Source: Escherichia phage BF17 | DNA length: 64,000 nucleotides | Direction: 5' to 3' (one strand) | Sequence record: MW822008.1 | Shown: piece by piece, positions 7,498 through 41,434 of the stretch | Layout: every line of letters starts with the position of its first letter | Position numbering within the stretch: the first letter of the stretch is position 1 | Notes under the pieces: generated by a model | Database searches by the model: none | The model's input: the letters and a program-made list of their open reading frames with translations, nothing else | Told to the model about the DNA's origin: nothing | Made by a program: the position numbers and the translations under genes

Positions 7498-7515
7498 TTT
7501 TTCTTTTAAACGTAA

Positions 7516-7543
7516 GCCTCGAACTAGTTCGGGGCTTTTTTTA
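7516..7543 (+). terminator. intrinsic terminator
   Basis: GCCTCGAAC/GTTCGGGGC hairpin + T7. Confidence 0.6.
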
Positions 7544-7586
7544 TGCTAAATAAAGTATAATACCTTATAAAATAAAAGAGGTTGCT

Positions 7587-8363: not shown

Positions 8364-8374
8364 GGAGATAACCC

Positions 8375-9469: not shown

Positions 9470-10486
<1,017 letters not shown>

Positions 10487-10513
10487 CTTAAACGACCTTA
10501 TGGAGTTATTAAA

Positions 10514-11047: not shown

Positions 11048-11050
11048 GAC

Positions 11051-11596
11051 ATGAGTATACTTAATGAAATGTTAGACTATAATGATGAAGAGCTAAATGA
11101 AGCTCGTCCATATAGTCGTTCACAAAGTGCAGTAGATAGTGCAAAAGGAAAAGTAAAAGGCTTTTTCGGTAGTGGTCAAGTAGAACAAGGTGCACAAGAA
11201 GTTGGTGCAGAAGCAAACCGTCTTTGGGCTGAATTTAAACGCTATGTTGGTCGCAAATACGGTAAAGCACAGCCATCAGTACCATATGCTGATGTTGCAC
11301 AATTCTTCAAAGGAAATAACCTTGATATAAAACACCTGGGAAATAACAGTCGTCGTACTTTTACTCCTAAAGATGTTGGTTCTGCTCTATTGGCAGCAGC
11401 ACGTGACTTGATGAATGATTATCGTGATGATGATAAAGGTGAAGAACAACAACGTCCTGCACCACAAGCTCAACCTGACAATGCTCCACAACCAGCACCA
11501 CAGGAACAGCCAAAAGCACAAGGTTCTAGTATCCCTGATGCTCTACAAAAATTAAGTCCAGAGCAGCGTGAACAACTTTTGCGTATGCTTTCTTAA
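11051..11596 (+). CDS. hypothetical protein with P/Q/A-rich low-complexity tail
   Basis: 181-aa ORF; AAGGA RBS; PQAQPDNAPQPAPQEQP segment. Confidence 0.45.
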   Translation: MSILNEMLDYNDEELNEARPYSRSQSAVDSAKGKVKGFFGSGQVEQGAQEVGAEANRLWAEFKRYVGRKYGKAQPSVPYADVAQFFKGNNLDIKHLGNNSRRTFTPKDVGSALLAAARDLMNDYRDDDKGEEQQRPAPQAQPDNAPQPAPQEQPKAQGSSIPDALQKLSPEQREQLLRMLS

Positions 11597-11609
11597 GGAG
11601 AATCAACAC

Positions 11610-16553: not shown

Positions 16554-16575
16554 TAATTAAAAAGAGTGTTGACAA

Positions 16576-16606
16576 GAAGGATACCACATGGTATCCTTCT
16601 TTTATC
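16576..16606 (+). terminator. intrinsic terminator after AAA+ gene
   Basis: Perfect palindrome GAAGGATACCA-CATG-TGGTATCCTTC + TTTT; preceded by TTGACA at 16569. Confidence 0.65.
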
Positions 16607-16628
16607 TTAACTAAACGAGGAAATACAA

Positions 16629-18038: not shown

Positions 18039-18050
18039 GTACTAAATAAT

Positions 18051-18081
18051 GAGAACGGAAAATTCCGTTCTCTACTTTTTT
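18051..18081 (+). terminator. intrinsic terminator after vWA gene
   Basis: GAGAACGGAA-AA-TTCCGTTCTC hairpin + T6. Confidence 0.75.
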
Positions 18082-18147
18082 CAGCGGGACAGCTTGGAAA
18101 AAGGTGATATAATTATATTTGTAACAACATACATGGAGAGTATTAAA

Positions 18148-18378
18148 ATGGAACAAGAACCAGAAAAAATTCAACTAACACTAATCGACCTAATCAACGC
18201 TGCTAAAATCATGGAAGCTGCTGTGGCTCGTAATTCATTTAAAGTCGAAGAACTTGTTGATGTTGCTCCAGTCGTATCTAAGTTTGTTGAGTTTGCTAAC
18301 TCTGCACTCGAAGATATCAAAGCACAAGAAGAAGCTGAAGCTGCACAAGCTGCTGCTGAACAAAATAAAGGAGAATAA
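18148..18378 (+). CDS. small acidic hypothetical protein
   Basis: Track ORF 18049 overlaps the terminator; ATG at 18148 has GGAGAG RBS. Confidence 0.4.
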   Translation: MEQEPEKIQLTLIDLINAAKIMEAAVARNSFKVEELVDVAPVVSKFVEFANSALEDIKAQEEAEAAQAAAEQNKGE

Positions 18379-23495: not shown

Positions 23496-26400
23496 TTAAG
23501 CAGTACGTTGTGCAATGAACAAATCAGTAACTGAACTTACACCATCATAAATTACTTGGTAAATGGTCACGCTACCAGCAGTTTTGTTTAGTTCACCATC
23601 AACAACAGCATAAGTACCATCAGTTGTAAAGTTTCTGTTACCAGTTGTATCTTGTTTAACATAGATGTATACTGATGCAGCTTTACCACCACCAATTAGG
23701 CCAGTAATTGGAGCCAACGTGGTATCTTGGTCTAGAGTGATGAAGTATACGTTACTTGTACCATCTGGAGTCCATGTTCCGGTTGGAGCAATTACTGATG
23801 ATGTAACTTGAGTTGGGATTACATCATACTTTTTGGTAGTTACTGTTGTAGTAGTTAAGTTAGCATTAGTAGTGGTTAGTTCACCAGTTACTGTTACTGC
23901 CTTATCAAACACAGCATTTTCTTTAAATGATGAAGTTGCATTAACGGTTAGAACGTCAGCCGCTGCGTCACCTAATGTTACGTTACCATTCGCAGTTAGT
24001 GCTCCTGTTACTGCTAGTGTTCCACCTACTGTTGCGTTACCAGTAACGGATGCACTTGCAAGTGTAGCCAAACCTGATGTTGTAATTGTAGAAACGGTTG
24101 TTGCACCGAATCCAGCAGTACCAGTTGCAGAGATATTACCACCTACTGTTAGGTTACCAGCAGTGATACCAACAGTACCAGTGATGTTTGCACCACTTGA
24201 CATAGTTACTGCACCACCAAATGAACCAGTAGTAGTAACTTCTAAAGTATTACCTTTAAGCAATCCAGTTGCAGTGATAGAAGTACCAGCAGTAATTGAA
24301 GTGTTAGCAGTAATTGAAGTGCCAGCCGCTACGTTGTTAGTTGCAGTCAAAGACTTAACAGCTACATCGGAATCTGCTTGGTTCAATTGTGCATTTAGTA
24401 CACCAGTAACAGTAAAGTCACCGTTGTTTACAACGTTACCATTAACGATTAGGTTGTTGTTTTGTGAACCGACTTCACCAATTGTTGCAGAACTTGAAAT
24501 AATTGCCGCACCAGCAGTAATATTACCAGCAGAAGATAAAGAATCGGATGCTATTACTGCAAACGGTTCTAGTGTTTGTCCACCAACATCGATATCTGCG
24601 TTAATACCACCTTCAACACGTAGTTTACCAGCAATATAAGTGTCTGGCATAATCTGTACAGTTTCAGGCTGCTCACCTAATGGTGTACCAACTGTTAGAG
24701 TTGCACCAGTTTTAACAGAACCTAGTGTTGTTTGACCAACTACACCTAGTGTACCACCAACGGTTGCGTTGTTAGTTACTGCTAGACCAGTTCCTGAACC
24801 ATTCAAGGTTGCAGATGGAGCAGTTACTGCACCAGAAGTTAGTGTTCCACCAATTGTTGCTAAACCAGTTACACCTAATGTTCCACCAAGGGTAGTATTA
24901 CCTGTCGCATTTAATGTTTCAGATAGAGTTAGTGTTTTAGCAGAGATATCTGCACCAGTTAGATCTAAGCTACCAGGAGTTAGTGTTCCAACTACAGTTA
25001 CATCGTTACCAAATGTCGCAGCACCAGTAACACCAAGAGTAGTACTGAAAGAGCCACTTGTTGCAGATACACCAGAAGTTACGATAGAACCAAGTGATGC
25101 TTGACCAGTTACTCCTAATGTACCACCAATAGTTGCATTATTAGTTACTGCTAGTGCAGTACCAGTACCGCTTAGGGTTGCCGATGGAGCAGTTACTTCA
25201 CCAGTTACACCTAATGTTCCACCTACTGTTGTGTTACCACCAAAGGAAGCTGCACCATCAGAGTGAATAGTTTCAGATACTGACAAACTCTTAGCTGTAA
25301 TGTCAGCAGTTGTTAGGTCTAAACCACCTGCTGGTGTGAATACACCTTCAACAGTTACATCGTTGTCAAATGTAGCTGCACCAGTAACATCCAATGTAGA
25401 ACTAAATGTACCAGTACTACCAGATACAGCACCGGAAACCAATGAACCAACAGTTGTTACACCAGTAATATTCGCAAGACCAGTTACAGTCAATGGACCT
25501 GAAGATAATGAGCCAGTTACACCTAATGTTCCACCAACGGTCGCATTGTTAGTAACACCCAAACTACCAGCATTCACTGTGCCAGATGCAGTAACATCAG
25601 TAGTACTTACACCACCACTTAGTGTGCTTAGGCCAGTTGCAGTGATGGTTGAAGCAGTTGCAAGACTATTAGCAGAAATATCTGCACCAGTTAGGTCAAT
25701 ACCACCTTGTGGAACCAATTCACCTTCAACTGTTAGTTTCTGAACAGTACTATCACCAGATACATTTAAGGATGCAGCACTTAGTGCAGCTACTGTACTT
25801 TGACCAGTTACATTTAAAGTGGTGTTTACTGTAGTGTTGTTTAAAGTTGTATCACCGGATACTAATATAGCGTTGGTATTGATACCACCAGCATCAACTT
25901 GAATACCACCAGTGCTTACAGTTACTTTCTTGCCGATATTTACAATATCAGTTAGGGTAGTTGCACCAGTTACTGAAGCAGTACCTGCGACTGAAAGGTT
26001 TCCAGATACGGATGGGCTACCAGTTACAACACCAGTTGTTAGTACTAGGTTACCACCAACGGTAGTATTTCCAGAACTAGCAAGGGTAATTGCTGAAACA
26101 TTGGAAGAACTTAAATCAATTGAACCATTAACAACTAGGTCACCACCAATTGTAGCACCTTCTGTAGTACTTAGGGATTTAGAACTAATATCGGTAGTAC
26201 TTAGGTCGATAGAACCAGGAGTAACAGTGCCAGATACGGTCAAATCACCAGTAATAGAAGCACTTTTCGCAATGTCAATTGTATCATTAACAGAACTAAT
26301 ATTATTAACATTTAATATACCATTAATGTTTGCATTATTGTCAACACGTAAACCTTCACCAACTCCATTTAGTACAATACTTGTAGCTGTTACTTCAGTA

Positions 26401-29216
26401 GCAGATACTTGTTTTAGTGTACTTGAACCAGTTGTTTCAATAGTATCTGCACGGACAGCACCAATAGTTGCATCAGTAGTAATTAGTTTTGGTAGAGTGC
26501 TAGAATTCACTGTATCAGAAACTGTAATAACACCAGCACTTGTAATTGTCTCTGCACTTGCAAGAGATTTCACAGACACATCAGCAGCACTTAGATCAAC
26601 TGTACCTGCTACCACAAGATCGCCACCAATTGTAGCACCTTCAGTTGTGGTTAGAGACTTAGAACTAATATCAGTAGTACTTAGGTCAATTGCACCAGGG
26701 GTCAATGTCCCAGATACGTCCAAATTACCAGTGATTGTAGTGTTATTGTTAATTGCTACACCATCAGCATTGCTGATTGACGCAGTTTCAACAGATGCAC
26801 CTTTTAATACGCCAGTAGCGGTAATGTTAGTTGCAGAAGTAATAGCACCAGAAGCGTTAACACCAGCTAGAGTTGATGTACCAGTTACATTTAGTGTGGT
26901 AGCATTTGCAGTGGTTGCAGTTACTGTGGTAATATTAGCTTCAGTACTGGAAAGTTTAGGTAGAACACTACTTACTGTACCTTCAGAACTAATAACTGCA
27001 CCAGTACTGGTTAGAGATTTAACAGCAACGTCAGCAGCACTTAGATCAACTGTACCTGCAACAACTAGGTCACCACCAATGATAGCACCTTCAGAAGTTG
27101 TTAGAGACTTAGCATCAATATCAGTAGTACTTAGGTCAATTGAACCAGGGGTAAGATTTCCAGTCACAGATAGATTACCTGCAATTGAAGTGTTGTTTGT
27201 TATTGACACACCAGCAGTGTTGCTAATGATTGCAGTTTCAACAGAAGATGCCTTTAGAGCACCAGTTTCAACGCTACCAGATTTAGAAAGACCAGTTACT
27301 ACAGATGATGCACCAGAAATTTCACCAGTTGCTGTAATAGTAGAGCCAGAAATTGCAGTACCTGCAATTGCACCAGTACTATTGATTGAAGTTGCTGTAA
27401 CACCAGCAAGAGTTGATTCACCAGCAACAGATAGAGTTGTTGTAACATCAACTTTGTTTGGAGCAATATCAAGACCGTCAACGTCAGCGATTGCAGTTAC
27501 ACCAGTTGAAGTTCCAGTTACTACCAAGTCTTTAACAGTGATTGTTTGACCAGTTACGGTTACATCACCACTGAAAGTGCCAGCTACAGCAGATAAATCG
27601 CCACTAAAGGTTGCGTTATCACCGCTAACATCCCCAGTAAAGGTTGCACTTGTACCGGATACTCTATCACTGAAGATACCTTTAGAACCACTAACATCAC
27701 CACTGAAAGTACCAGAGGCAGCAGATAATGCACCAGTAACAGTTGCAGCACCACCAACTTGTAGAGATGAACCTACAGTTGTTTGACCAACTGATTCAAG
27801 AGTTTGACCTTTGATTGCTTCAGCAGCAACTACTGATTTAGGAGTTAGATCTTGTCCACTCACATCAACAGTTAGGCCAGTTACAGTACCTGTAAATTCA
27901 ACATCATTAAGAATTGCTTTACCACCAACTTGTAGTTGTGGAGTTGCAGGGTTTTGTGTTGCGTTACCAGTAATTGTTAGATAATCTAATTTGTTTAGAC
28001 CATTACCAGTAATACCATAGGTAGATAGTGCAGCAGAACCGAAGGTTGCAGTTTGTAGAACGTTCAACTTAGCAGGAGACATTAGTTCAGATTGAACTTC
28101 GTTTGCTAACAAGACTGTTGGACGTGCACTAGGTGCAGTATATGCAAAACCTAGCTTAACGTTAGCATCAGCGGTATTTTGACCCAAATTGATTGCTTTG
28201 AATGTTGCAGTACTTGCTAGACCAGTGATGTTTGCACCCAATGTAACTGCACCAGTTAGTGCTGAAGCACCGGATACTGATAATGTTGTTGCTTGGATAT
28301 CATCTAAATCAAAACTACCACCAATAGTACCAGATACGTTGATGTTGTTAAAGTTTGCAGTACCAGAACTTTCGATATTAGGAATAGTTGCTACACCAGT
28401 TACTTCTAAATCAACAACTTTAGTTTTACCTTTAGTTACTTCAAGTAAAGGAGTGGTTGGTGATTGAATTGCGTTACCAGAAATAGTTACATAATCTAAT
28501 TTGTTTAAACCATTACCTGTAATACCGTAAGTTGAAAGTGAAGAATCACCAAATGTTGCAGTTTGTAGAACATTCAACTTAGCTGGTGACATTAGTTCGG
28601 ATTGAACTTCGTTCTGTAGAAGAACGGTTGGTCGTTGTCCTGGAACGGTGTAACCAAAGTTTAGTCTATATGCTTGACCTGCTTCATTAGGCCCGATACG
28701 AATATCACGGAAGTTTGCAGTACTTGCAAGACCAGTGATATTTGCACCCAATGTGACTGAACCAGTTAGTGCTGAAGCACCAGACACATTAAGTGTTGTA
28801 GCATTAATATCAGAAAGATTAAAAGTACCACCAAGTGTACCAGAAATGTTTACATCTTTAAAAGTTGCTGTGCCAGTTGAAGTAATATCAGTTGATTCAA
28901 CAGAATCAAATGATCCTGAATTAGCTTCTAAATTATCAAATTTTGCAGTTGTTCCGACAGCAGCAGTAATGTTTCCTGCAAATGTCGCAGCACCTGAAAC
29001 ATCAGCACCACCGGATAAGGTTGCCTTACCAGCAACATCCAATGCACCTGTGACATTCACAGAACCAGCGGTAATTGCAGTGAATACTGCGTTAGCAAAA
29101 GACACTTCCCCATTAACCGTTAGGTCATTACTGAATACTGCATTACCTTTGACCAAAAGATCCTTACCTACCGTGGAATTACCAGATACATCAAGATCCG
29201 TTTTAATCGAGTACAT
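23496..29216 (-). CDS. giant repeat-containing tail fibre protein (1906 aa)
   Basis: G/T/S/A/V-rich beta-repeat composition; paralogous to 29366-34282 (shared MYSIKTDLD start and TPDGT..VYIYV C-terminus); internal tandem repeats. Confidence 0.7.
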   Translation of the reverse strand: MYSIKTDLDVSGNSTVGKDLLVKGNAVFSNDLTVNGEVSFANAVFTAITAGSVNVTGALDVAGKATLSGGADVSGAATFAGNITAAVGTTAKFDNLEANSGSFDSVESTDITSTGTATFKDVNISGTLGGTFNLSDINATTLNVSGASALTGSVTLGANITGLASTANFRDIRIGPNEAGQAYRLNFGYTVPGQRPTVLLQNEVQSELMSPAKLNVLQTATFGDSSLSTYGITGNGLNKLDYVTISGNAIQSPTTPLLEVTKGKTKVVDLEVTGVATIPNIESSGTANFNNINVSGTIGGSFDLDDIQATTLSVSGASALTGAVTLGANITGLASTATFKAINLGQNTADANVKLGFAYTAPSARPTVLLANEVQSELMSPAKLNVLQTATFGSAALSTYGITGNGLNKLDYLTITGNATQNPATPQLQVGGKAILNDVEFTGTVTGLTVDVSGQDLTPKSVVAAEAIKGQTLESVGQTTVGSSLQVGGAATVTGALSAASGTFSGDVSGSKGIFSDRVSGTSATFTGDVSGDNATFSGDLSAVAGTFSGDVTVTGQTITVKDLVVTGTSTGVTAIADVDGLDIAPNKVDVTTTLSVAGESTLAGVTATSINSTGAIAGTAISGSTITATGEISGASSVVTGLSKSGSVETGALKASSVETAIISNTAGVSITNNTSIAGNLSVTGNLTPGSIDLSTTDIDAKSLTTSEGAIIGGDLVVAGTVDLSAADVAVKSLTSTGAVISSEGTVSSVLPKLSSTEANITTVTATTANATTLNVTGTSTLAGVNASGAITSATNITATGVLKGASVETASISNADGVAINNNTTITGNLDVSGTLTPGAIDLSTTDISSKSLTTTEGATIGGDLVVAGTVDLSAADVSVKSLASAETITSAGVITVSDTVNSSTLPKLITTDATIGAVRADTIETTGSSTLKQVSATEVTATSIVLNGVGEGLRVDNNANINGILNVNNISSVNDTIDIAKSASITGDLTVSGTVTPGSIDLSTTDISSKSLSTTEGATIGGDLVVNGSIDLSSSNVSAITLASSGNTTVGGNLVLTTGVVTGSPSVSGNLSVAGTASVTGATTLTDIVNIGKKVTVSTGGIQVDAGGINTNAILVSGDTTLNNTTVNTTLNVTGQSTVAALSAASLNVSGDSTVQKLTVEGELVPQGGIDLTGADISANSLATASTITATGLSTLSGGVSTTDVTASGTVNAGSLGVTNNATVGGTLGVTGSLSSGPLTVTGLANITGVTTVGSLVSGAVSGSTGTFSSTLDVTGAATFDNDVTVEGVFTPAGGLDLTTADITAKSLSVSETIHSDGAASFGGNTTVGGTLGVTGEVTAPSATLSGTGTALAVTNNATIGGTLGVTGQASLGSIVTSGVSATSGSFSTTLGVTGAATFGNDVTVVGTLTPGSLDLTGADISAKTLTLSETLNATGNTTLGGTLGVTGLATIGGTLTSGAVTAPSATLNGSGTGLAVTNNATVGGTLGVVGQTTLGSVKTGATLTVGTPLGEQPETVQIMPDTYIAGKLRVEGGINADIDVGGQTLEPFAVIASDSLSSAGNITAGAAIISSSATIGEVGSQNNNLIVNGNVVNNGDFTVTGVLNAQLNQADSDVAVKSLTATNNVAAGTSITANTSITAGTSITATGLLKGNTLEVTTTGSFGGAVTMSSGANITGTVGITAGNLTVGGNISATGTAGFGATTVSTITTSGLATLASASVTGNATVGGTLAVTGALTANGNVTLGDAAADVLTVNATSSFKENAVFDKAVTVTGELTTTNANLTTTTVTTKKYDVIPTQVTSSVIAPTGTWTPDGTSNVYFITLDQDTTLAPITGLIGGGKAASVYIYVKQDTTGNRNFTTDGTYAVVDGELNKTAGSVTIYQVIYDGVSSVTDLFIAQRTA
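24266..24490. repeat. near-identical ~210-225-bp segment shared with 30093-30300, with 18-bp unit copy-number difference
   Basis: Direct read: CCAGTTGCAGTGATAGAAGTACCAGCAGTAATTGAAGT ... CACCAATTGTTGCAG in both genes; this copy has an extra 18-bp unit (GTSITA x3 vs x2). Confidence 0.8.
26100..27260. repeat. three tandem copies of a ~450-bp coding repeat within the 1906-aa fibre gene
   Basis: Recurring block ...CTTAGGTCAATTGAACCAGGGGT... ; protein repeat TPGxIDLSTTDISSKSL.TTEGATIGGDLVVAGTVDLSAADV x3. Confidence 0.7.
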
Positions 29217-29316: not shown

Positions 29317-29345
29317 AAAGAAAAAGCCAACTAAAAAAGTTGGCT
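29317..29345 (-). terminator. intrinsic terminator between the two fibre genes
   Basis: AGCCAAC/GTTGGCT hairpin followed on minus strand by TTTTCTTTT. Confidence 0.6.
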
Positions 29346-29365
29346 TTAATTATTAATTTAAAATG

Positions 29366-32300
29366 TTATACACGTTGTGCAACGAAGGTATCAAACACAG
29401 TACTGAAACCATCATAGATTACTTGGATAATACTTGTTTGACCAACTACAGCACTTACTGTACCAGAAACTACAGAGTATGCACCACCGAAGGTGAAAGT
29501 AGTATCAGCAACAGATGGAGTTACATAGATATACACTGAACATGCTTGACCACTACCAATTAGACCCGCGATGGAATCCATTGTAACACTTTGGTCAAGA
29601 GTTAAGCGATATACGTTAGTAGTACCATCTGGTGTCCAAGTGCCACCTACAGCAGCAGTAGAAGCAGTAACACTAGCAGGGATAACAGAATATTTCTTAG
29701 TTACCATGTTGTTTGTAGTGAAGTTTGCAGTGGTGGTGTTAATAGAACCAGTCACTGTTAGGTTCTTATCAAATGTTGCGTTCTCTTTAAATGTAGATGT
29801 TGCATTTACAGTTAAAGTATCAGCAGCAGCATCACCAATCACAGTGTTACCATTTGCAGTTAATGTACCACCTACAGTTAGATCACCAGTTACAGATGCA
29901 CTTGCCATTGTAACAGCACCAGTTGTAGTAATGGTTGTTGCAGTTAGTGCTTGGAAGCTTGATTCTTCTGTTGCAATTACTGAACCATCAACATGCATGT
30001 CACCACCTGAAACATCAGCACCACCTAGTAGGCTTACTTTACCACCGAACGAACCAGTAGTCGTGATAACAAGAGAGTTACCATTCAATGCACCAGTTGC
30101 AGTGATAGAAGTACCAGCAGTAATTGAAGTACCAGCCGCTACGTTGTTAGTTGCAGTCAAAGACTTAACAGCTACATCGGAATCTGCTTGGTTCAATTGT
30201 GCATTTAGTACCCCAGTAACGGTGAAGTCACCATTAGTTACTACGTTACCATTAACAGTTAGGTTGTTGTTTTGTGAACCAACATCACCAATTGTTGCAG
30301 CTTTAGAAACGATGGTTGCACCAGAAGTAATGTTACCAACAGCAGATAGTGTTGCAGCAGCTTCAATTGCATATGGTTCTAGTGTTTGACCACTTACGTC
30401 GATTTCAGCGTTAATACCACCGATTACACGCAATTTACCAGCAATATAAGTATCTGGAATGATCTGTACAGTTTCAGGTTGTTCACCAACTGGAGTACCA
30501 ACAGTTAGGGTTGTGCCAGTTTTCACTGCACCAGTAGCTGTTAGTGAAGATACAGTAGTAGCACCAGTAACATCTAGAGTGCCAGTTACACCCAAATTAC
30601 CACCAACTGATGCGTTTGCAGTAGAAGTTAAACTTCCAACAGTTGCTAGACCAGATGCAGTCACAGTAGAAGTACTAACACCACCACTTAGAGTACTTAG
30701 GCCAGTTGCATTGATAGTTGTTGCAGTAGTTAGACTATTAGCAGTAATGTCTGCACCGCTTAGGTCAAGACCACCTTGTGGGATCAATTCACCTTGGACA
30801 GTTAGTTTCTGAACAGTACTGTCACCAGAAACTGTTAGTGATGTCGCAGATACACCTGCTAGAGTAGAAGCACCAGTTACACCTAAAGTTCCAGTAATGG
30901 AAGTTCCTGCTAGAGTAGAAGCACCAGAAACGTTAATTGTGTTAGTATTGATACCACCATCAACTACCTGAATACCACCAGTACTCACTGTTACTTTCTT
31001 ACCGATATTAACAATATCAGTTAGGTTAACAGCACCAGTTACACCAAGAGTTCCACCGATTGTTGTATTACCAGAGATAGCTGGGCTACCAGTCACAACA
31101 CCAGTTGTTAGTACTAGATCAGTTCCAACAGTAGTAGAACCAGTACTTGCTAGACTTGCAGCTACAAGGTTAGTTGCACTTAAGTCGAATGCACCATCTA
31201 CAGTTAGGTCACCAGCAATGTGTGCGTTACCTAGTGAATCAAGAGATTTAACGGTTACATCAGTATTGCTTAGGTCGATTGAACCAGCAGTTAGTGTACC
31301 AGATACAGCTAAATCACCAGTGATTGCAGTATTTTTTGCAATATTAAGAGAAGCAGCAGTTGTTGTTAAAGAACCAACAGTTGCAATGCCACCAACAGAT
31401 AATGCACCACCAACGTTTGCATCATTATCAACTTGAAGACCAAGGCCACTACCAGAAAATTCAGCACTAGTAGCAGTTACTTGAGTAGCTGATACACTTT
31501 GTAGTACACTGTTGCCAGTTGCATTAATAGTACCTGCATTTACTGTAAAGAGTGTTGCATCAGTTGAAGTAATTTTAGGTAACGAACTAGTATTGGTTGA
31601 ATCGGTAACGGTAATAACACCAGCACTTGTAATTGTCTCTGCACTTGCAAGAGATTTCACAGACACATCAGCAGCACTTAGGTCAAAAGTACCATCAACT
31701 ACTAAGTTTCCACCAACATTAACATCAGCAGTAGTAGTTAGTGAGTTTGCAGTAATATCAACAGTTGTTAGATCAAGACCACCTTCAGGTTTGAATACAC
31801 CAGTGACAGTTAGATCTTTTGCCGCGACAACATTACTTGCTAGATTTAGTGTACCAGCACCAGCAGCTTCAGCTTGTAAAGTTGGAACTGTTACAGAAGT
31901 TGTGATTGTTGCAGTACCAGAAGACAAACGCGAACCAGATACTACACCAGTACTAGTTAGTGTTCCTACTTTCGCTGCACCAGTAGTAGTTAGTGTTCCA
32001 CCTGAAACGTCACCAGTTGCGACAACAGAAGATGCATTAATTACACCAAATGTACTTGGGTTAGTTGCACTAACTGATTTTGTTACTACATCAGCAGCAG
32101 ACAAATCAATAGCACCAGTTACTGCAAGAGAACCACCCACAGTTACGTTACCAGTAGTTGTTAAAGAAGCAGCACTTACATCAGTAGTGCTTAAATCTAT
32201 ACTACTCGGAGTTAGTGTTCCAGTAATAGTTACGTTATTAGCAAAAGTAGTGTCACCAGTAATACTTGGAACAGTTAGTGAAGCCATAGAACCAGCACCA

Positions 32301-34282
32301 GTTACTGCAAGAGAACCACCAGATAGTGCACCAGCCGCAGTTACTGTATTACCAGATACAGACGCACCAGTAACATCACCAGTACTGGTTACTGAACTAG
32401 CAGTTAGGCCAGCTAAAGTAGTGTCCCCAGCAACAGATAGTGTTGTTGTAACATCAACTTTATTTGGGGCGATATCAAGACCATCAACATCAGCTTGGGC
32501 AGTTACACCAGTAGTTGTACCAGTTACTACTAAATCACGTACAGTTACAGTTTGACCAGTAACGCTAACATCACCACTGAAAGTACCTTTAGCAGCACTT
32601 ACGTCACCAGTGAAGGTTGCAGCAGTACCAGTTAGTGCACCAACAACATTAGCTGTTCCACCAACTTGTAGGTTAGTTCCTACGGTGGTTTGACCAACAG
32701 ATTCAAGGGTTTGTCCTTTGATTGCTTCAGCAGCAACAACAGATTTAGGAGTTAGGTCTTGACCACTTACATCAACTGTTAGGCCAGTTACAGTACCAGT
32801 GAATTCAACATCATTTAGTACTGATTTACCAGCTACTTGTAGTTGTGGTGTTGCTGGACTTTGTGTACCATTACCAGTAATAGATAGATAATCTAGTTTG
32901 TTTAGACCGTTACCTGTGATACCATAGGTTGCAAGAGATGCATCACCAAAGGTAGCAGTTTTTTGTACATTTAGTACTGCTGGAGATACTAGTTCAGACT
33001 GAATTTCATTTTGTAGAATTACAGTTGGACGAGCACCAGGGGCAGAATAAGCAAAACCATACTTAACGTTAGCATCGGCTGCGTTTTGTCCTAAACTTAC
33101 TGCTTTAAAATTAGCAGTACTATTAGCACCGGAAATATCAGCACCCAAAGTTACACCACCAACAAGGCTAGTTAATCCAGAAACAGTTAGAGTGTTTGCT
33201 TCAATATCATCAAGACTGAAAGTACCGCCGAGTGTACCAGATACGTTGATGTTATTAAAATTAGCAGTACCAGTACTTTCAATGTTAGGAATAGTTGCAG
33301 TTCCTGTTACTTCGAAATCATGAACTTTAGTTTTACCTGAAGTTACTTGTAATAGTGGAGTTGTTGGATCTTGAACAGAGTTACCAGATACTGTTAGGTA
33401 ATCTAGTTTGTTTAGACCATTACCAGTAATACCAAAAGTGGATAATGACGAATCACCAAAAGATGCAGTTTTCAATACACTTAGGGTAGCTGGAGACATC
33501 AATTCTGATTGGATTTCGTTCTGTAGAATTACAGTTGGACGAAGACTTGGAGCAGAATAGTTAAAGCTCAAACGGTAGTTAGTGTTTGCAGCATTGGAAC
33601 CAATTTTAATATCACGGAAGTTTGCACTACTATTCACACCAGTAATGTTGGAACCTAATGTAACACCACCTTGTAGACTGGTCAAACCAGAAACAGTTAG
33701 AGTTGTTGCATTAACATCAGATAGACTAAATGTTCCACCTAGTGTACCGGAAATATTCACATCTTTAAAGTTTGCAGTTCCAGTTGATGTAATATCAGTA
33801 GTTGCAGTGTTTGTGAATGTTGCATCAGTTGCAGTTATTGTGTCAAATGCTGCGGTAGTGCCAGTTTCAGCAGTAATGTTACCTTTAAATGAAGAAGTTC
33901 CAAGAACATCCATTGATGCCACTTGGGTATCTTTTAGTACAGCAGTGCCAGCGGTTTGTGTTAGGTTACCTGCCATTGATACTGGGCTTTGGAATTGTGC
34001 ATTAGAATTAATCGTTGCAGTATCAGAACCAACAGGTAAATTACCAATTACGGAATTACCATGAACTTCAATTCCACCATTCAATGATGCTTTACCAGCA
34101 ACATCTAGTGTAGATGAAATGTCTACAGTTTCTGCTTCAATTGCAGTGAATACAGCGTCAGCAAAAGTTACAGTTCCATTAACTGTTAGATTTTTATTGA
34201 ATACTGCATCGCCTTTCACAAGAAGATCTTTAGCAACCGTTGCACCACCAGTTATATCGAGATCTGTTTTAATCGAGTACAT
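29366..34282 (-). CDS. giant repeat-containing tail fibre protein (1638 aa), paralogue
   Basis: Same composition and shared N- and C-terminal modules as 23496-29216; GGAGGG RBS. Confidence 0.7.
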   Translation of the reverse strand: MYSIKTDLDITGGATVAKDLLVKGDAVFNKNLTVNGTVTFADAVFTAIEAETVDISSTLDVAGKASLNGGIEVHGNSVIGNLPVGSDTATINSNAQFQSPVSMAGNLTQTAGTAVLKDTQVASMDVLGTSSFKGNITAETGTTAAFDTITATDATFTNTATTDITSTGTANFKDVNISGTLGGTFSLSDVNATTLTVSGLTSLQGGVTLGSNITGVNSSANFRDIKIGSNAANTNYRLSFNYSAPSLRPTVILQNEIQSELMSPATLSVLKTASFGDSSLSTFGITGNGLNKLDYLTVSGNSVQDPTTPLLQVTSGKTKVHDFEVTGTATIPNIESTGTANFNNINVSGTLGGTFSLDDIEANTLTVSGLTSLVGGVTLGADISGANSTANFKAVSLGQNAADANVKYGFAYSAPGARPTVILQNEIQSELVSPAVLNVQKTATFGDASLATYGITGNGLNKLDYLSITGNGTQSPATPQLQVAGKSVLNDVEFTGTVTGLTVDVSGQDLTPKSVVAAEAIKGQTLESVGQTTVGTNLQVGGTANVVGALTGTAATFTGDVSAAKGTFSGDVSVTGQTVTVRDLVVTGTTTGVTAQADVDGLDIAPNKVDVTTTLSVAGDTTLAGLTASSVTSTGDVTGASVSGNTVTAAGALSGGSLAVTGAGSMASLTVPSITGDTTFANNVTITGTLTPSSIDLSTTDVSAASLTTTGNVTVGGSLAVTGAIDLSAADVVTKSVSATNPSTFGVINASSVVATGDVSGGTLTTTGAAKVGTLTSTGVVSGSRLSSGTATITTSVTVPTLQAEAAGAGTLNLASNVVAAKDLTVTGVFKPEGGLDLTTVDITANSLTTTADVNVGGNLVVDGTFDLSAADVSVKSLASAETITSAGVITVTDSTNTSSLPKITSTDATLFTVNAGTINATGNSVLQSVSATQVTATSAEFSGSGLGLQVDNDANVGGALSVGGIATVGSLTTTAASLNIAKNTAITGDLAVSGTLTAGSIDLSNTDVTVKSLDSLGNAHIAGDLTVDGAFDLSATNLVAASLASTGSTTVGTDLVLTTGVVTGSPAISGNTTIGGTLGVTGAVNLTDIVNIGKKVTVSTGGIQVVDGGINTNTINVSGASTLAGTSITGTLGVTGASTLAGVSATSLTVSGDSTVQKLTVQGELIPQGGLDLSGADITANSLTTATTINATGLSTLSGGVSTSTVTASGLATVGSLTSTANASVGGNLGVTGTLDVTGATTVSSLTATGAVKTGTTLTVGTPVGEQPETVQIIPDTYIAGKLRVIGGINAEIDVSGQTLEPYAIEAAATLSAVGNITSGATIVSKAATIGDVGSQNNNLTVNGNVVTNGDFTVTGVLNAQLNQADSDVAVKSLTATNNVAAGTSITAGTSITATGALNGNSLVITTTGSFGGKVSLLGGADVSGGDMHVDGSVIATEESSFQALTATTITTTGAVTMASASVTGDLTVGGTLTANGNTVIGDAAADTLTVNATSTFKENATFDKNLTVTGSINTTTANFTTNNMVTKKYSVIPASVTASTAAVGGTWTPDGTTNVYRLTLDQSVTMDSIAGLIGSGQACSVYIYVTPSVADTTFTFGGAYSVVSGTVSAVVGQTSIIQVIYDGFSTVFDTFVAQRV

Positions 34283-34358
34283 TTAGTTCCCTCCAAATAG
34301 GCAAAAAGCATAAAATACATTTGACCTTGTTAATATACATATATTTAGTTATTGATAT

Positions 34359-34402
34359 AAAAAATCCAGACTAGATGAATCATAGTCTGGACTATTTTTT
34401 TT
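34359..34402. terminator. bidirectional-type hairpin terminator
   Basis: TCCAGACT ... AGTCTGGA 8-bp stem flanked by A6 and T8. Confidence 0.6.
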
Positions 34403-35300
34403 ATTTACCGGAAATTACTATTTTACCACTAAACGCTTCGTCAGAAGTGAATGTAACATTACCACTTGCATCAATTTGAGTTTCGGTTATTACCAGTTCA
34501 AATGGTGATGCTGCTGTGCTGCCTGGAGTTTTATTTGAATAAATTGAAATATACAAATTATCAGGTGTTTGGTTATGTTCAGACGCGGGGATAGTAATGG
34601 TGTATTCATCACTAGATACTACCCAATCCGCTTGGTTAATTAATTTACTATAAGGTACTGTCATTGTTGTTGCTCCTATGATGTTGACTTTGACACTTGT
34701 ATAATCAGTGATTTGACCAATAACATCAATCGTAATGTCACCAATACCACTCACAGTGACGTTAGTTTGGAATACAGTGTCAAGTGGGATGTTACCAGGG
34801 TCACCCTGTAGCTGAACCATAATATCTGGTCCACGACCATGTACTGATTCAGGTAAAGAATAAGTATATTGATCTGTTGTTCCAGGAACTAATGTAAATG
34901 CCGATACAGGAACGATTTCAGTAGTAACGTAAGAACTATCAGTACCTGGAGTTGTGCTTTGGAGAGGTTTCCAAACACCAAGGTCTTTAATATAGATCTG
35001 AATAATATTAGTACTGTCAACTAAGAAGTAAGCGTCACCATCTACACCGATTGATTCAGATGGTGCAATAGTTCCACGTAAAATACCGGAACCGCCACCA
35101 CCACCGCTATGTGTATTCAAATAACCCAATGTAACCAAGTGTGTATTTGCGGTTGGGTCACCTGCTGAAACAGGAAGAAGTTGTGTACCCGTGTAGTTCT
35201 GGATTTGAACAACATTACCATTAGTGGCAATTTGTGCACCATTTTTACCAAGTATGAAGGTCTTCTTCATGGTTCCTTCTAAATTAGAAAAAACTGCCAT
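34401..35300 (-). CDS. short tail fibre / receptor-binding protein sharing N-terminal module with the tailspike
   Basis: Starts MAVFSNLEGTM, identical to start of 35315-37456; G-rich linker then beta-rich domain. Confidence 0.5.
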   Translation of the reverse strand: MAVFSNLEGTMKKTFILGKNGAQIATNGNVVQIQNYTGTQLLPVSAGDPTANTHLVTLGYLNTHSGGGGGSGILRGTIAPSESIGVDGDAYFLVDSTNIIQIYIKDLGVWKPLQSTTPGTDSSYVTTEIVPVSAFTLVPGTTDQYTYSLPESVHGRGPDIMVQLQGDPGNIPLDTVFQTNVTVSGIGDITIDVIGQITDYTSVKVNIIGATTMTVPYSKLINQADWVVSSDEYTITIPASEHNQTPDNLYISIYSNKTPGSTAASPFELVITETQIDASGNVTFTSDEAFSGKIVISGK

Positions 35301-35314
35301 TTTTATAATCTCCT

Positions 35315-37456
35315 TTAAGATAGGGTGATATATGTTATTGGTTGAGCAGCTTTCAATAATGCCCCTGCTGCGGTAGCAGTAACAATCGGATCGGCAATAT
35401 CGATACGATACGCATTATTAACAACATAAACTGCTCTAGTGATATATGTTTTTAAATCTTCGCCGTTTTCCCCTGCTCCTGTGATTAGGATTTCGGTTCC
35501 AGCAGCTTTAGCATATTGATTTTCACCCCATGATACACCCAATGCTTCGATATAAGTTTGTCCTGCAACTGTTTGTCTAATTGTGTCATATCGACCAAAG
35601 AAAGAACCACCTACTGTAACAATAAATTTTCCACCTGATTGTTTATGGATAATTGTTCCTTCTGGGAAATATCTCCCACCAGGAAAAACATCATAAGGCA
35701 CGTAATACTGTTCAACTACAGGTATTACTACAGGTCCACGATGACCCGTTCCATCAATTGCAGTGGTTACTTTAAAGTTATTAGATGATTGGTCAATACG
35801 GTCAACATACATTCTTGAGAAACTATATTTTGATATGTTACAATCATCTTGAACAACACAATTAGTCCAGTTGGTATATGTATATTTAGAGCGAGTATAT
35901 AAGCCCCCTCCTTCACCTTCAGTTGCAAGGTGTTGTCCAATAACATCAAGTTCTTTAGTACTGATATTATTAAACTTGGAAGATGACGGCAATCCACGCC
36001 ATTGAATTCTACTACATGTAATATTAGAAAGTTCAGTAGTATTTAGCCAATTATCAGAGCCTGATGTATGCACAATAATAGACGACTCAGGAATGTGGAG
36101 ATTACATAATTTAAAGTTACGTGGAGGACCAGCAAATTTACCAGATGTTACACCCCAGTTAATAGAAACCATACGGTTAGTTACTGATGGATCATTTAAT
36201 AGATGTCCAGATAGGCCATCAATAATAAAATCAACAGAACCATAAGTAATTACACCAGCGGTTGTCAAACCAGTACCAATTGATACCAATGTCGATGGAT
36301 AAACTTCATTATTAAGAATTTTAAAGTCTTTACCCAATTCAACGTGAATACATTGACGAACATTGTATAAGCGGTTATTTTTTATAACGAATTTTTTTAC
36401 ATATTGTGAATCATCTGCATTCACATCATAAGGACCAGAACCAGCAACGCCGATACCAATACCCCAGTTTGAAAGAGGAATTGGTGCATCTGTACCATCT
36501 ACGTTTTCAATCAAGTTACCTTCTATTACAAAACCGTCTGGGTAATGTGAGTTGACTACGTTCAATTCAATTGCATCACCATATATATCATGGATGTGGT
36601 TGTATGAATAACGCCCAACTGTCATTTTCTCACCAGTGCCTTGCTGAAGAACACCGTACTTACATTGTGTCATTTCATTAAAGCAGAAGTCGATAGTACC
36701 TGATTCAGTCATACCTTGCATTAGAAATGCAGCAGTACTTGTAATATTAATAAATTTATTAAAATAAAATTTACCATTACCACCAAAGAATTTTAAATAA
36801 CATCCTGTTAATGTTGCTTGTTGGATTGTACTATTCAGTACTGATACCATTGTTCCACCGTTACCAGTGATTGTTCCACCAAACCATTGAATATCATTCA
36901 AATAAACAGCAGTTCTGATACGATAATTACCACCAGCTTGAATTTGGATTTGGTGTTCTTTTGCATAAACTGCACATGCGTTAACCGCCGCCGTGTCATC
37001 AGTGATGCCATCACCTTTTGCACCAAACTCTTCTGGAGTTATGTAAAACTGTGCCTGTTGGAGTGTTCCTCCAGTAATAAGTCCGATATAATCAGCACCG
37101 TTAACACTGGAAAGGACATTTTTATTAATGTATAATGATTTTACCCAAACATCATTTGTTTTTGCAAAGATATCAACAATACCCTCAGAATCAACTTGAA
37201 AATAAGTGTTGTTATTTTTACCAATGTCATTTGTTGGTGGAAGCACGCCAAATAAAGCATTTGGGTTATCTTCAAGATACCTAACGTTTACTGCGGAATC
37301 ATCGTCATTAGGAGTTCCCACCTTAACAGGTAGGAACGTTTCGCCTAAAAAGTCTTTGATTGCGACAGAATCGTTTACAAAATTAATAGAAGCACCACGT
37401 TTACCCAACTTAAATGTTGGCATCATGGTTCCTTCTAAATTGGAAAAAACTGCCAT
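35315..37456 (-). CDS. tailspike with pectate-lyase-like beta-helix (putative polysaccharide depolymerase)
   Basis: Motif EEFGAKGDGITDDTAAVNACA typical of the pectate-lyase-superfamily N-cap; N-terminal MAVFSNLEGTM module; 14-bp gap to next gene. Confidence 0.7.
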   Translation of the reverse strand: MAVFSNLEGTMMPTFKLGKRGASINFVNDSVAIKDFLGETFLPVKVGTPNDDDSAVNVRYLEDNPNALFGVLPPTNDIGKNNNTYFQVDSEGIVDIFAKTNDVWVKSLYINKNVLSSVNGADYIGLITGGTLQQAQFYITPEEFGAKGDGITDDTAAVNACAVYAKEHQIQIQAGGNYRIRTAVYLNDIQWFGGTITGNGGTMVSVLNSTIQQATLTGCYLKFFGGNGKFYFNKFINITSTAAFLMQGMTESGTIDFCFNEMTQCKYGVLQQGTGEKMTVGRYSYNHIHDIYGDAIELNVVNSHYPDGFVIEGNLIENVDGTDAPIPLSNWGIGIGVAGSGPYDVNADDSQYVKKFVIKNNRLYNVRQCIHVELGKDFKILNNEVYPSTLVSIGTGLTTAGVITYGSVDFIIDGLSGHLLNDPSVTNRMVSINWGVTSGKFAGPPRNFKLCNLHIPESSIIVHTSGSDNWLNTTELSNITCSRIQWRGLPSSSKFNNISTKELDVIGQHLATEGEGGGLYTRSKYTYTNWTNCVVQDDCNISKYSFSRMYVDRIDQSSNNFKVTTAIDGTGHRGPVVIPVVEQYYVPYDVFPGGRYFPEGTIIHKQSGGKFIVTVGGSFFGRYDTIRQTVAGQTYIEALGVSWGENQYAKAAGTEILITGAGENGEDLKTYITRAVYVVNNAYRIDIADPIVTATAAGALLKAAQPITYITLS

Positions 37457-37470
37457 TTATCAACCCTCTT

Positions 37471-38634
37471 TTAAATGTTATCTTGAATAGGCTGAATAGG
37501 TGCTTGCCATGATAAAGTACAAACGATCTTCATTTCACCAAATGAACTGTTGTTTACGGAATCATTGAATACACAAGAAATGATTTCATCTTTACTTGAC
37601 ACTTCATGGTTGGTTTCGTTAACAATGTAACGCATTTTGCGGTTGATATCGAAATAATCAACAGGTGCAATTACAGTACCACCAATATCTTCTTGTGCTT
37701 CACCACCGAAACGTACAAACATTTCACTTACTGGTTCATCATATGCTTGGTTAATATCAACTTCGATATTAGTTACTAGGTATCCAGCAGGGCATGTACC
37801 AATAACTAACAATGCGTTGGTCCATGAATGATCAATAGTGTTGATGATAACAACTGTATCTTTACCTGGTTCACCCTGAATACCTGGTTCACCTTGCTTA
37901 CCTTCTTCACCGTCTTTTCCACGGAATAAGATGCCAGCACTCCACTCTTTAGTTGGGGTGGATGATGTAGTTACGATATCAACATAATACAAATTACCAT
38001 CAGTAGTGTTATAGAAGCAATAATCTTGTGGTAGATTATCAATGCTTGGGAATTGACTACCAGTACTATCAATGTGGAAACGACCACGTAGACCCTGTTC
38101 ACCACGGAAAGGAACACCATCACTCCATGTTGCAGTTACGCTTTGATAGAAATATAATTTACCATCTTCAGTATTATAGAAGGTATAGTTATTGACGAGG
38201 CCAGTTGTTGGAAACACAGTACCGGAACTGTCAATGTGGAATGGTTTACCAGCTTCACCAGTATCACCTTTACCAAACTCTACACGGTTCCAAGTACTAA
38301 TTGTTTCTTGTGCATCGTTTGATTTAAAATATAAAGTACTAGTGCCGTTTGCAAGACTAAGATAACACCACCCTAGTTCTTCACCAACACGGAAGAGTTC
38401 ATTAGGAACTTCAAAACCTATCTCATTTGGATAAAAGTTTCTACCGTTAGCACCATTTTGTCCAACCACTAGACCTAAGTCTTGGATTGTATTGTCGGAA
38501 TAGGTTACAATTAAATGTCCAGCAGCGTTAATAACTAAACTTTTGATGCCAGAATTATTACATGAACCACCTGACCCATTGTTGAATGAAATTGTCATAA
38601 TATTTCCCTTGTATGAGTTAATGTCATATACCAA
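37471..38634 (-). CDS. fibre-like protein with collagen-like G-X-Y run
   Basis: GKDGEEGKQGEPGIQGEPGKD (7 G-X-Y triplets); duplicated FHIDS.G..FP motif; first gene of the operon. Confidence 0.5.
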   Translation of the reverse strand: MVYDINSYKGNIMTISFNNGSGGSCNNSGIKSLVINAAGHLIVTYSDNTIQDLGLVVGQNGANGRNFYPNEIGFEVPNELFRVGEELGWCYLSLANGTSTLYFKSNDAQETISTWNRVEFGKGDTGEAGKPFHIDSSGTVFPTTGLVNNYTFYNTEDGKLYFYQSVTATWSDGVPFRGEQGLRGRFHIDSTGSQFPSIDNLPQDYCFYNTTDGNLYYVDIVTTSSTPTKEWSAGILFRGKDGEEGKQGEPGIQGEPGKDTVVIINTIDHSWTNALLVIGTCPAGYLVTNIEVDINQAYDEPVSEMFVRFGGEAQEDIGGTVIAPVDYFDINRKMRYIVNETNHEVSSKDEIISCVFNDSVNNSSFGEMKIVCTLSWQAPIQPIQDNI

Positions 38635-39835: not shown

Positions 39836-40936
39836 ATGAGTGTAAGTTATACAATTTATAGAAGTAATGGTAGCGTTTATGCTACCATTCCAAATAACGT
39901 AATATTAGGACCAAACCAACCTGGTAGTAACCCAGTACCGTTAAACTTTGCAGGTAGAAATAAAGTTGGTTACGGGCAAGCATGGAACGAAAACTTCCTC
40001 CACTTGGTTGAGAACTTCAGTGGGGCTACTGCACCTCGTGGTAACGTTAATGGTCAGATTTGGTACAGAAATACTGGCAACACTGGTGAACTACTTCTTG
40101 CATTAGTTGATAATGCTCGTCAACCAGTAGATACTGCATCTGAAGCTGACTGGGCATCTATCCCAATGATTTCAATTTTCAACACAGTACCAGATGGTGA
40201 AAATAGTATTATGGGTCGTATGGTTCTTACCAGCAATGGTGATTCCCTTCGTGTCCTAATGAAAAATAAAGAATGGCGTGAAATTCAAACATCTCGTCCT
40301 GAAAATAAAGAATACTCCACACTACTTGATATCAACTATGATACAGGTAAGAAATACATTGAATTTACACAAAGTAACAGTACTAAGCCATTAGCTTACT
40401 TCAATATGGGTGGCACTTCACAGGTTGATTCAAATAACTGGACAACATTCACAAATGGTACTGGGGTGTTTGAATTTGGTAGTAACTATTTTTATGAATT
40501 GAAAATTATGATTCGTGAAGTTAGTGATTCATCAGGTGAAATTGTTTCTCTTCCGTATAATTCAAAAACATTTTTCATTAAAGGTCAGTTCTATGTTGAT
40601 AACCAAGGTACATTTGTTCCTGGTTCAATTGGTGCAAGTCAGATTCCAGACCCACGTCGCATTACACAACTAGAATCAATCAAGGATGTAATTACCAGTA
40701 GTCGCCCTAATTGGGATGTATCTATGGTAATTAATGGTGTTGACCCAACTCTCCCAAATCCGAATGGTATTACAAAAGCGGATTACGAAAACTGGGTGGT
40801 TAACTCTCTTAACTCTAATAAAAACTTAGGGTTCCGCGTCGATGGTATAGTAAACAACCTTTCGGCGGGTGAGTCAGTTAAGCTTCAAGCATCTGTCCTA
40901 CTTAATATAACAGGTATCCCACTGATTGGGGTATAA
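39836..40936 (+). CDS. hypothetical protein, possibly tail-associated
   Basis: 366-aa ORF with AAGGTGA RBS; no motif recognised. Confidence 0.4.
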   Translation: MSVSYTIYRSNGSVYATIPNNVILGPNQPGSNPVPLNFAGRNKVGYGQAWNENFLHLVENFSGATAPRGNVNGQIWYRNTGNTGELLLALVDNARQPVDTASEADWASIPMISIFNTVPDGENSIMGRMVLTSNGDSLRVLMKNKEWREIQTSRPENKEYSTLLDINYDTGKKYIEFTQSNSTKPLAYFNMGGTSQVDSNNWTTFTNGTGVFEFGSNYFYELKIMIREVSDSSGEIVSLPYNSKTFFIKGQFYVDNQGTFVPGSIGASQIPDPRRITQLESIKDVITSSRPNWDVSMVINGVDPTLPNPNGITKADYENWVVNSLNSNKNLGFRVDGIVNNLSAGESVKLQASVLLNITGIPLIGV

Positions 40937-40969: not shown

Positions 40970-41434
40970 TTAATATCGATATGGTAAGCTGTTGACAAAC
41001 TGTGTACCTTGACGTATACTTTCCCACAATGAATAAAAATCCTTCATTAAATTTGCGTTGAGTAATGTGTTTTTTGCACCAGGATGTAACGGTTTAGGCC
41101 ATGAGCCAATCTTAACCCATGCATAACCAGAACTCTCATGATTTAAAGTAGGTACGAATTCATTTTCAACTACAATGACAAATGAATAGTATTTAAATTT
41201 ACCATTCTTAGTGCAGAACACATCAAATGGTATAATATCTATTATCGTTGGAATAGAATCACCTAGTTCTTCTTTAATCTCACGCATAAGACCCTGTAAA
41301 GGAGTTTCATTATACTCAAGCTTCCCACCAACAAATGCCCAGTTGTTAGAATACGTACTTCTTTCTGATCTCAAGTTTAACATCATGTGTCCAGTACTTT
41401 TAGATAAAAATATAGCACCTACTGCTTCATTCAT
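40970..41434 (-). CDS. Nudix hydrolase
   Basis: Canonical Nudix box GGKLEYNETPLQGLMREIKEELG (G-x5-E-x7-REUxEExGU); AAGGAGG RBS. Confidence 0.8.
   Translation of the reverse strand: MNEAVGAIFLSKSTGHMMLNLRSERSTYSNNWAFVGGKLEYNETPLQGLMREIKEELGDSIPTIIDIIPFDVFCTKNGKFKYYSFVIVVENEFVPTLNHESSGYAWVKIGSWPKPLHPGAKNTLLNANLMKDFYSLWESIRQGTQFVNSLPYRY

Follow-up and report, generated by a model that had tools for sequence, protein, structure and literature searches.

The 64,000-nt sequence analyzed here, from Escherichia phage BF17 (accession no. MW822008.1; hereafter the window, whose coordinates are used throughout), contains two adjacent genes for proteins of 713 and 299 amino acids (aa), the larger of which, a colanidase tailspike typical of the genus Asteriusvirus, is probably mounted on the virion through an N-terminus copied from its 299-aa neighbor, a virion protein. 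Both open reading frames (ORFs) had been singled out from the sequence alone, in what we call here the original prediction, as two receptor-binding proteins attached through a common anchor; both are indeed present at that place, on the minus strand, and both start with MAVFSNLEGTM. Homology, fold, conserved residues, modular distribution and synteny derive from the present analysis, while the enzymatic activity of orthologs is taken from published papers.

The original prediction limited the similarity between both proteins to the shared start plus around 20 similar residues. The similarity is real, and it extends considerably further: a single BLASTP comparison aligned residues 1–104 of the 713-aa protein with residues 1–110 of the 299-aa protein (41% identity, E = 1e-19), so that, judging from this alignment, the shared module comprises about 105–110 residues, far beyond chance. 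The module is composed of an anchor of ca. 65 aa followed by a repeat of ca. 45 aa, which in the colanidase (residues 66–110) has the pattern G..P....G....YF.VD.....I..K....W. The anchor of the colanidase aligns with that of the 299-aa protein and also with the start of unrelated spikes and fibers; it is modeled at low confidence in the AlphaFold2 models of both proteins, and is covered by none of the Pfam and PHROG models. Searches with phmmer and hmmsearch among the 195 window ORFs with 50 aa or more retrieved no further carriers of the module (next best E > 0.1), nor did the module show homology to the characterized adaptors considered (T4 gp10-like XD, the N-termini of TSP1/gp66 and of T7 gp17, and the P22 head-binding domain).

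Comparison by tblastn of either N-terminal module with 50,697 phage genomes retrieved only 71 records, all from RaK2-like jumbo phages, with two copies per genome in Asteriusvirus (as in the window, 121Q, A4, and Turkey5) and one copy in all the other RaK2-like genera. The single-copy modules show 50–66% identity to the version from the 299-aa protein vs. 30–40% to the version from the colanidase, and only in Asteriusvirus is the colanidase gene flanked by those for the tail protein and the 299-aa protein; therefore, the 299-aa protein appears to be the ancestral carrier and the colanidase to have acquired a copy of its N-terminus. Most likely, the gene for the 299-aa protein would have been duplicated and its beta-sandwich domains replaced by the enzyme. 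A metagenomic chimera of 792 aa (P0071; L008, positions 6320–8698, Logan SRR31729320) combines the N-terminal module (E = 3e-25), a WcaM body and the last beta-sandwich of the 299-aa type (E = 2e-16), and thus keeps the enzyme within a 299-aa-type frame, which supports that the N-terminus of the colanidase came from the 299-aa protein. The gene for this chimera is located just upstream of a thymidylate synthase gene, and not at the position occupied in Asteriusvirus.

The codons for the first 11 residues of the two genes are identical in 32 out of 33 nt, whereas DNA identity is around 45% along the rest of the module; likewise, 28–32 of these 33 nt are identical between both copies in four Asteriusvirus lineages, and the first ~10 residues are nearly invariant across genera and paralogs. 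We considered a recent gene conversion as the origin of the identical first 11 residues, which was ruled out by the occurrence of the same 33-nt start in the single-copy genes from GAP32, Yen9-04, and CBB; the identical start is ancestral conservation, at both the protein and nucleotide levels. Additionally, in both genes the initial 33 nt, ATGGCAGTTTTTTC[C/T]AATTTAGAAGGAACCATG (positions 37424–37456 and 35268–35300, minus strand), are conserved even at synonymous sites, which suggests a constraint at the nucleotide level on the 5′ coding end, for example for translation initiation or mRNA structure, besides selection on the protein. The two genes are tandem paralogs at their 5′ ends, and their common N-terminus could accordingly be just a leftover of a tandem duplication, devoid of any common function at present; nevertheless, the unequal retention of the first 33 nt and of the rest of the module, the near invariance of the initial residues across genera and the independent reuse of the anchor on other cargoes, described below, make such a relic very improbable. 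A combined alignment of colanidases and members of the 299-aa family (A3) was discarded, as the latter were misaligned past residue ~62.

The reuse of the anchor became evident in an exhaustive profile search with the 299-aa family over 1.84 billion representative proteins. Positions 1–70 of the profile matched the extreme N-terminus of proteins of 705–1366 aa, positions 65–112 matched a repeat that occurs in up to 14 copies in many long proteins, and positions 117–288 matched the end of proteins of ca. 375–385 aa with other N-termini. The anchor is present on five cargo types, including a spike with a Peptidase_S74 chaperone (P0139), a spike with a PF13229 beta-helix (P0145) and fibers with propeller repeats of the BNR/sortilin type (P0144, P0149, P0172, and P0216). 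P0144 only weakly resembles the C-terminal domain of the 299-aa protein (E = 0.004 along 27 residues), a likeness to which we gave no weight, and its fiber family had no match in the phage genome collection. The first two spikes are encoded in the same 120-kb contig (L011, Logan SRR18476386; positions 8001–10343 and 16571–18343), which we assign to an uncultured RaK2-like phage because a neighboring 902-aa protein is 65–67% identical to proteins from Eneladusvirus and Mimasvirus. Both spike genes flank genes for proteins of 902, 199, and 919 aa, beside NrdD/NrdG, at a locus where the cultured relatives have no anchor carrier. A search with a profile of the anchor only, in a word-indexed collection of 5.8 billion proteins, retrieved four matches, all short proteins or fragments; 90 candidates were scored, and the method is too insensitive for a query of 68 residues. 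Together, these comparisons support that the anchor is distributed as would be expected from an adaptor for exchangeable cargoes.

Concerning the cargo in BF17, the 713-aa protein is 100% identical to BF17 ORF313 and 87% identical, over its full length, to 121Q gp573; it matches phrog_6117 ("colanic acid degradation") with E = 2e-252 and, by phmmer, its residues 96–712 match phi92 gp150, a colanidase tailspike (PDB 6e0v; E = 4e-233, 57% identity). The beta-helix that had been anticipated from sequence repeats was tested directly and is well supported: the AlphaFold2 model, with a predicted local distance difference test score (pLDDT) of about 90 over residues 140–713, displays short strands in the repetitive pattern of a beta-helix, and Foldseek retrieved 6e0v as the closest structure (E = 3e-62, template modeling score of 0.90 on the target); other beta-helix tailspikes and alginate epimerases and lyases came next. 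PF27800 is the precomputed assignment for clusters identical and related to this protein, and the NCBIfam model for WcaM matches its residues 262–466 (E = 9e-27). The motif GAKGDGITDDTAAV, highlighted in the original prediction, occurs at residues 145–158, with GAKGDGITDDT at residues 145–155; the match to the Pfam model Pect-lyase_RHGA_epim (PF12708) spans only residues 143–227, around this GDGxTDDT region, and is below the gathering threshold (20.2 vs. 27 bits). Across 27 homologs, including bacterial WcaM, the invariant columns include Q272, D294, E297, N299, W331, Q368, H371, and E373, all of them intact in the 713-aa protein, and the polar and acidic residues among them constitute a candidate catalytic site.

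According to a 2026 paper on phi92 (PMC13450770, citing Xu 2025), gp150 hydrolyzes the beta-1,4 Glc-Fuc bond of colanic acid; likewise, BF17 ORF313 was equated with PBECO4 gp547, a colanic-acid-degrading enzyme (PMC10059673, citing Kim et al. 2015). The papers describing phages Sharanji and fEgEco12 contain no proteomics, halo or colanidase data. As the phi92 homolog is reported to hydrolyze this linkage, the 713-aa enzyme would be a hydrolase and not a lyase. The designation of pectate-lyase-like depolymerase is thus appropriate for the fold and, by homology, for the depolymerization of polysaccharides, but not for the family, which is WcaM/PF27800: by homology, the protein is a known colanidase and WcaM-family hydrolase that resembles pectate lyases in fold only and whose activity we take from the papers on its orthologs. 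The degradation of capsule or exopolysaccharides that had been envisaged is thereby narrowed to the exopolysaccharide colanic acid, the target expected from the close homology to PBECO4 gp547 and phi92 gp150. In Escherichia phage vB_Ec-M-J (L001, positions 10016–12158), which is otherwise 98% identical, the colanidase is annotated as two coding sequences (CDS) of 352 and 361 aa, resulting either from a real frameshift or stop or from a sequencing error.

Homologs of the colanidase body bear a variety of other N-termini, namely the P22 head-binding domain (PF09008), the T7 tail-fiber domain (PF03906), the TSP1/gp66 domain (PF18668), the tail-collar domain (PF12571) and the phi92-type domain (PF26208), and the PHROG and PDB matches of the 713-aa protein both start at about residue 94–96, which indicates that the first ~95 residues are specific to the Asteriusvirus-type lineage. 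From these architectures, the catalytic body can be regarded as a mobile cassette. Phi92 gp150 (PDB 6E0V/6E0W), PBECO4 gp547 and 121Q gp573 share with the 713-aa protein the same catalytic body, the same invariant residues and the same expected substrate; however, phi92 gp150 has a different N-terminus of ~190 residues (PF26208), matching its different virion, whereas the 713-aa protein and its Asteriusvirus orthologs possess the RaK2-like anchor. Escherichia coli WcaM (PF27800, TIGR04004), a protein of the colanic acid gene cluster, has a homologous beta-helix core, and a bacterial WcaM was recovered among the homologs; nevertheless, the 713-aa protein scores far under the equivalog cut-off (94 vs. 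~800 bits) and, unlike WcaM, it contains the N-terminal anchor and extra C-terminal domains. A conserved N-terminal part that binds the particle, followed by an exchangeable cargo, is also found in modular tailspikes such as P22 gp9, the T7 gp17 type, G7C gp63.1/gp66, CBA120 TSP1-4, RaK2 gp526-534 and the "conserved peptide" of KP32; as occurs with the RaK2-like anchor, several carriers of the same N-terminus can coexist in one phage.

The 299-aa protein matches phrog_10468 (E = 2e-92) and its homologs form 66 clusters with 44–97% identity, all of which, but for one fragment, are 284–309 aa long at 100% coverage; no Pfam domain was found in the protein or in any of these clusters. Its gene position is conserved in five genera: it always lies between the genes for a "tail protein" of ~375 aa and for a long tail fiber, as in Asteriusvirus, Mimasvirus (GAP32, CBB) and Eneladusvirus (fHe-Yen9-04). 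Its ortholog CBB_227 was identified in virions by mass spectrometry (5 peptides, 32% coverage; PMC5259590). In the AlphaFold2 model (pLDDT of 80) the first ~70 residues are poorly defined, followed by beta-hairpins at residues 73–112 (pLDDT of ~83) and two confident beta-sandwich domains (125–209 and 217–298); the structural matches were only generic immunoglobulin-like (Ig-like) folds, and searches of PDB sequences with the protein and its family profile retrieved no relatives. Column conservation among 48 family members is 0.93 over the first 20 residues, and identity in the C-terminal domains is 42–54% between genera that infect different hosts, a level of conservation close to that of the remaining chain. 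The family is thus conserved end to end in phages of Escherichia, Klebsiella, Erwinia, Yersinia, Cronobacter, and other hosts, and we found in the protein no hypervariable tip, no distal domain tracking the host and no recognizable binding or enzymatic domain. As conservation is even along the chain and across phages of different hosts, the 299-aa protein is unlike a host-range receptor binder, and we regard it rather as a conserved core protein with a structural or connector role. Hence, of the two receptor-binding proteins in the original prediction, the 713-aa protein stands as a depolymerase spike, but the case for the 299-aa protein, with its even conservation and generic folds, finds no support.

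In RaK2, the ortholog of the 299-aa protein (ORF061w; L003, positions 9001–9348; 40413–40760 in NC_019526) has only 115 aa, corresponding to the anchor plus the repeat, and this short form is general to Alcyoneusvirus (RaK2, K64-1, and relatives). The RaK2 lineage is described as lacking the long fiber (PMC5259590), and the Alcyoneusvirus locus contains neither the long-fiber gene nor the gene for ~210 aa that follows it in GAP32, compatible with a single deletion. The long-tail-fiber connector of phage T4, gp9, is a multi-domain protein of ~290 aa with beta-sandwich domains, similar in size to the 299-aa protein, whose gene is immediately upstream of that for the proximal subunit of the long fiber. 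By analogy, a role of the 299-aa protein as a fiber connector is suggested by its position just upstream of the long-fiber gene and by the RaK2 stub, although the PDB search and the structural matches gave no sequence or fold support for a likeness to gp9.

The organization of the locus is summarized in Table 1. Region 34300–37600 shows 99.6% DNA identity with Escherichia phage Turkey3, 97–99% with eight further jumbo coliphages and ~80% with 121Q, PBECO4, and phAPEC6; all of them belong to Asteriusvirus, with genomes of about 350–385 kb, and in their records the smaller gene is labeled "virion structural protein", while the label of the larger one is either "colanic acid degradation" or "colanidase tailspike". 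The genes for the 387-aa tail protein, the colanidase, the 299-aa protein and the 1638-aa fiber are tightly packed, with Shine-Dalgarno sites and 14-nt gaps, including that between the 713- and 299-aa ORFs, and we found no G+C-rich terminator within this four-gene stretch, up to a hairpin at 29323–29347. The fiber gene is thus the last of an apparent transcription unit, and this packing is compatible with co-expression of the four products as tail parts. The gene for the 387-aa tail protein is syntenic in all the RaK2-like genera examined, and its orthologs CBB_228 and phAPEC6 gp253 were detected by mass spectrometry (PMC5259590 for CBB). A PDB sequence search retrieved no relative of this protein; being always adjacent, it might conceivably be the docking partner of the anchor. 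A visual impression that it also contains the repeat of positions 66–112 was not supported by the hidden Markov model (HMM) of the repeat.

TABLE 1. Genes and protein regions of the colanidase locus in the window.
Feature	Position	Strand	Basis or orthologs
Colanidase tailspike gene, 713 aa	35315..37456	minus	ORF list; ortholog of 121Q gp573, PBECO4 gp547, BF17 ORF313
Colanidase N-terminal anchor, residues 1–65	37262..37456	minus	Anchor HMM domain, E = 5e-29 over residues 1–69
Colanidase repeat-type neck motif, residues 66–110	37127..37261	minus	Repeat HMM domain, E = 9e-11 over residues 66–104
WcaM-type right-handed beta-helix body plus C-terminal domains, residues 140–713	35318..37039	minus	Homology, model
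Gene for conserved 299-aa virion structural protein	34401..35300	minus	Ortholog of 121Q gp572, GAP32_221, CBB_227
299-aa protein N-terminal anchor, residues 1–65	35106..35300	minus	Anchor HMM domain, E = 3e-33
299-aa protein repeat-type neck motif, residues 66–112	34965..35105	minus	Repeat HMM, E = 5e-25 over residues 71–113
299-aa protein, two tandem beta-sandwich (Ig-like) domains, residues 125–209 and 217–298	34407..34928	minus	
Co-directional "tail protein" gene, 387 aa, upstream of colanidase	37471..38634	minus	phrog_13565, E = 2e-211
Co-directional long tail-fiber gene, 1638 aa, downstream	29366..34282	minus	phrog_4549 tail fiber, E = 2e-182

From the above, we propose that the WcaM-type beta-helix body would cut the colanic-acid slime of E. 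coli, allowing the virion to reach the cell surface, and that this body would have been fused, phage by phage, to the own N-terminal adaptor of each phage. In the Asteriusvirus-type fusion, the adaptor would be the anchor of ~65 residues starting with MAVFSNLEGT followed by the repeat-type neck of ~45 residues, and most likely the colanidase and the 299-aa protein would use this common anchor to plug into sockets of one kind, at the baseplate or the base of the fibers. The idea of interchangeable proteins on a common adaptor, already advanced in the original prediction, agrees with the shared module and with the occurrence of the anchor on unrelated cargoes, whereas the attachment itself, together with the trimeric state of the colanidase, the docking role of the anchor and the identity of the socket, is what we infer.

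Several observations weigh against this proposal. The virion proteome of phAPEC6 includes the products of the flanking genes, gp253 and gp256, but not gp254 and gp255, which correspond to the colanidase and the 299-aa protein; there is no solved RaK2-like baseplate in which a socket could be recognized, and the PDB searches found no related tail structure; and the category of the enzyme family in PHROGs is "moron, auxiliary metabolic gene and host takeover" and not "tail". The first and the last of these would also be expected if the colanidase were not a virion component but a soluble enzyme, released at lysis to strip colanic acid from neighboring cells, with the shared N-terminus serving for folding, trimerization or recognition by an assembly factor; the purified enzyme from phage PBECO4, which reportedly acts in trans, would agree with this too. 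However, in the phAPEC6 record (MK817115; L006, positions 6910–10115) no CDS is annotated for either the colanidase or the 299-aa protein, with numbers gp254 and gp255 being skipped, which may be the reason why neither protein appears in the proteome; moreover, that study found only 62 proteins, and low-copy spikes are therefore easily missed. A soluble enzyme is also unlikely because the gene is inside the apparent tail-fiber transcription unit, between two structural genes confirmed by mass spectrometry, because the other N-termini found on this body (P22 head-binding, T7 tail fiber, gp66/TSP1, and tail collar) are all virion adaptors, and because the same anchor heads a classic tailspike with an S74 chaperone.

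The genes for the colanidase and the 299-aa protein are adjacent and apparently co-transcribed, and branched receptor-binding complexes assembled from conserved N-terminal domains are known, e.g., in CBA120 and for RaK2 gp526-534 (PMC10253068). The two proteins might then occupy non-equivalent sockets, with the 299-aa protein acting as the adaptor and the colanidase as its passenger, or they might form mixed trimers via the shared N-terminus. Nevertheless, branching systems rely on complementary domains and not on identical N-termini, whereas in this case conservation is highest at the extreme N-terminal peptide, which is the same in both proteins and suggests a common partner; additionally, other genera have the 299-aa protein without a passenger. 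We thus view this arrangement as improbable, to much the same degree as a soluble enzyme, and favor the mounting of both proteins by equivalent anchors. Extending this proposal beyond Asteriusvirus, the anchor of ~65 residues, with consensus MA[VI][FY]SN[LF]xGT..., could be an undescribed plug-in adaptor present clade-wide in RaK2-like jumbo phages and some relatives, having the 299-aa protein as its default carrier and originating new spikes by insertion of cargoes in a duplicated copy, with P0071 as a surviving intermediate that retains both ends; we consider the prospects of this broader scheme to be evenly balanced.

Other features of the surrounding tail module deserve mention. The hairpin at 29323–29347 has a perfect 10-bp stem and runs of T on both strands, therefore resembling a terminator in both directions, and it sits between the 1638-aa fiber gene and the next large fiber ORF (23496–29216). 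Within the 1638-aa fiber, a segment of ~175 residues is duplicated in tandem (roughly 165–340 and 340–515); the string TGTANF..NISGTLGGTFSL..LTVSGLTSL.. is present twice, and the composition of the fiber, rich in Thr, Ser, Val, and Gly, leads to several long spurious ORFs in the opposite strand (e.g., 31512–32555). A gene for a MutT/NUDIX hydrolase (40970–41434, minus strand) is also embedded in the tail module, with a gp15-like sheath completion gene on one side and three structural genes in reverse orientation on the other, an arrangement that is kept in all the RaK2-like genera examined.

The enzyme described here was already known; what our analysis documents anew is a lineage-specific family of anchors and the likely origin of this tailspike by duplication and insertion of a cargo. 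Overproduction of colanic acid, leading to mucoidy, is a common means by which E. coli escapes from phages, and a virion-borne colanidase counters it; this role was already appreciated for PBECO4 and phi92, and the enzyme is annotated in many Asteriusvirus genomes. The general concept of modularity of phage receptor-binding proteins remains unchanged, this being an ordinary case of modular tail proteins, and our small addition concerns how the enzyme is mounted, probably via a copied N-terminus of a core structural protein of RaK2-like phages. If the anchor is a docking element, it would mark a boundary for cargo exchange in the engineering of the host range of jumbo phages, and the 299-aa protein and its socket would become targets for structural work. 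Likewise, if the anchor is truly a plug-in adaptor, jumbo phages could be retargeted following a simple rule, namely the swapping of the cargo behind a fixed anchor.

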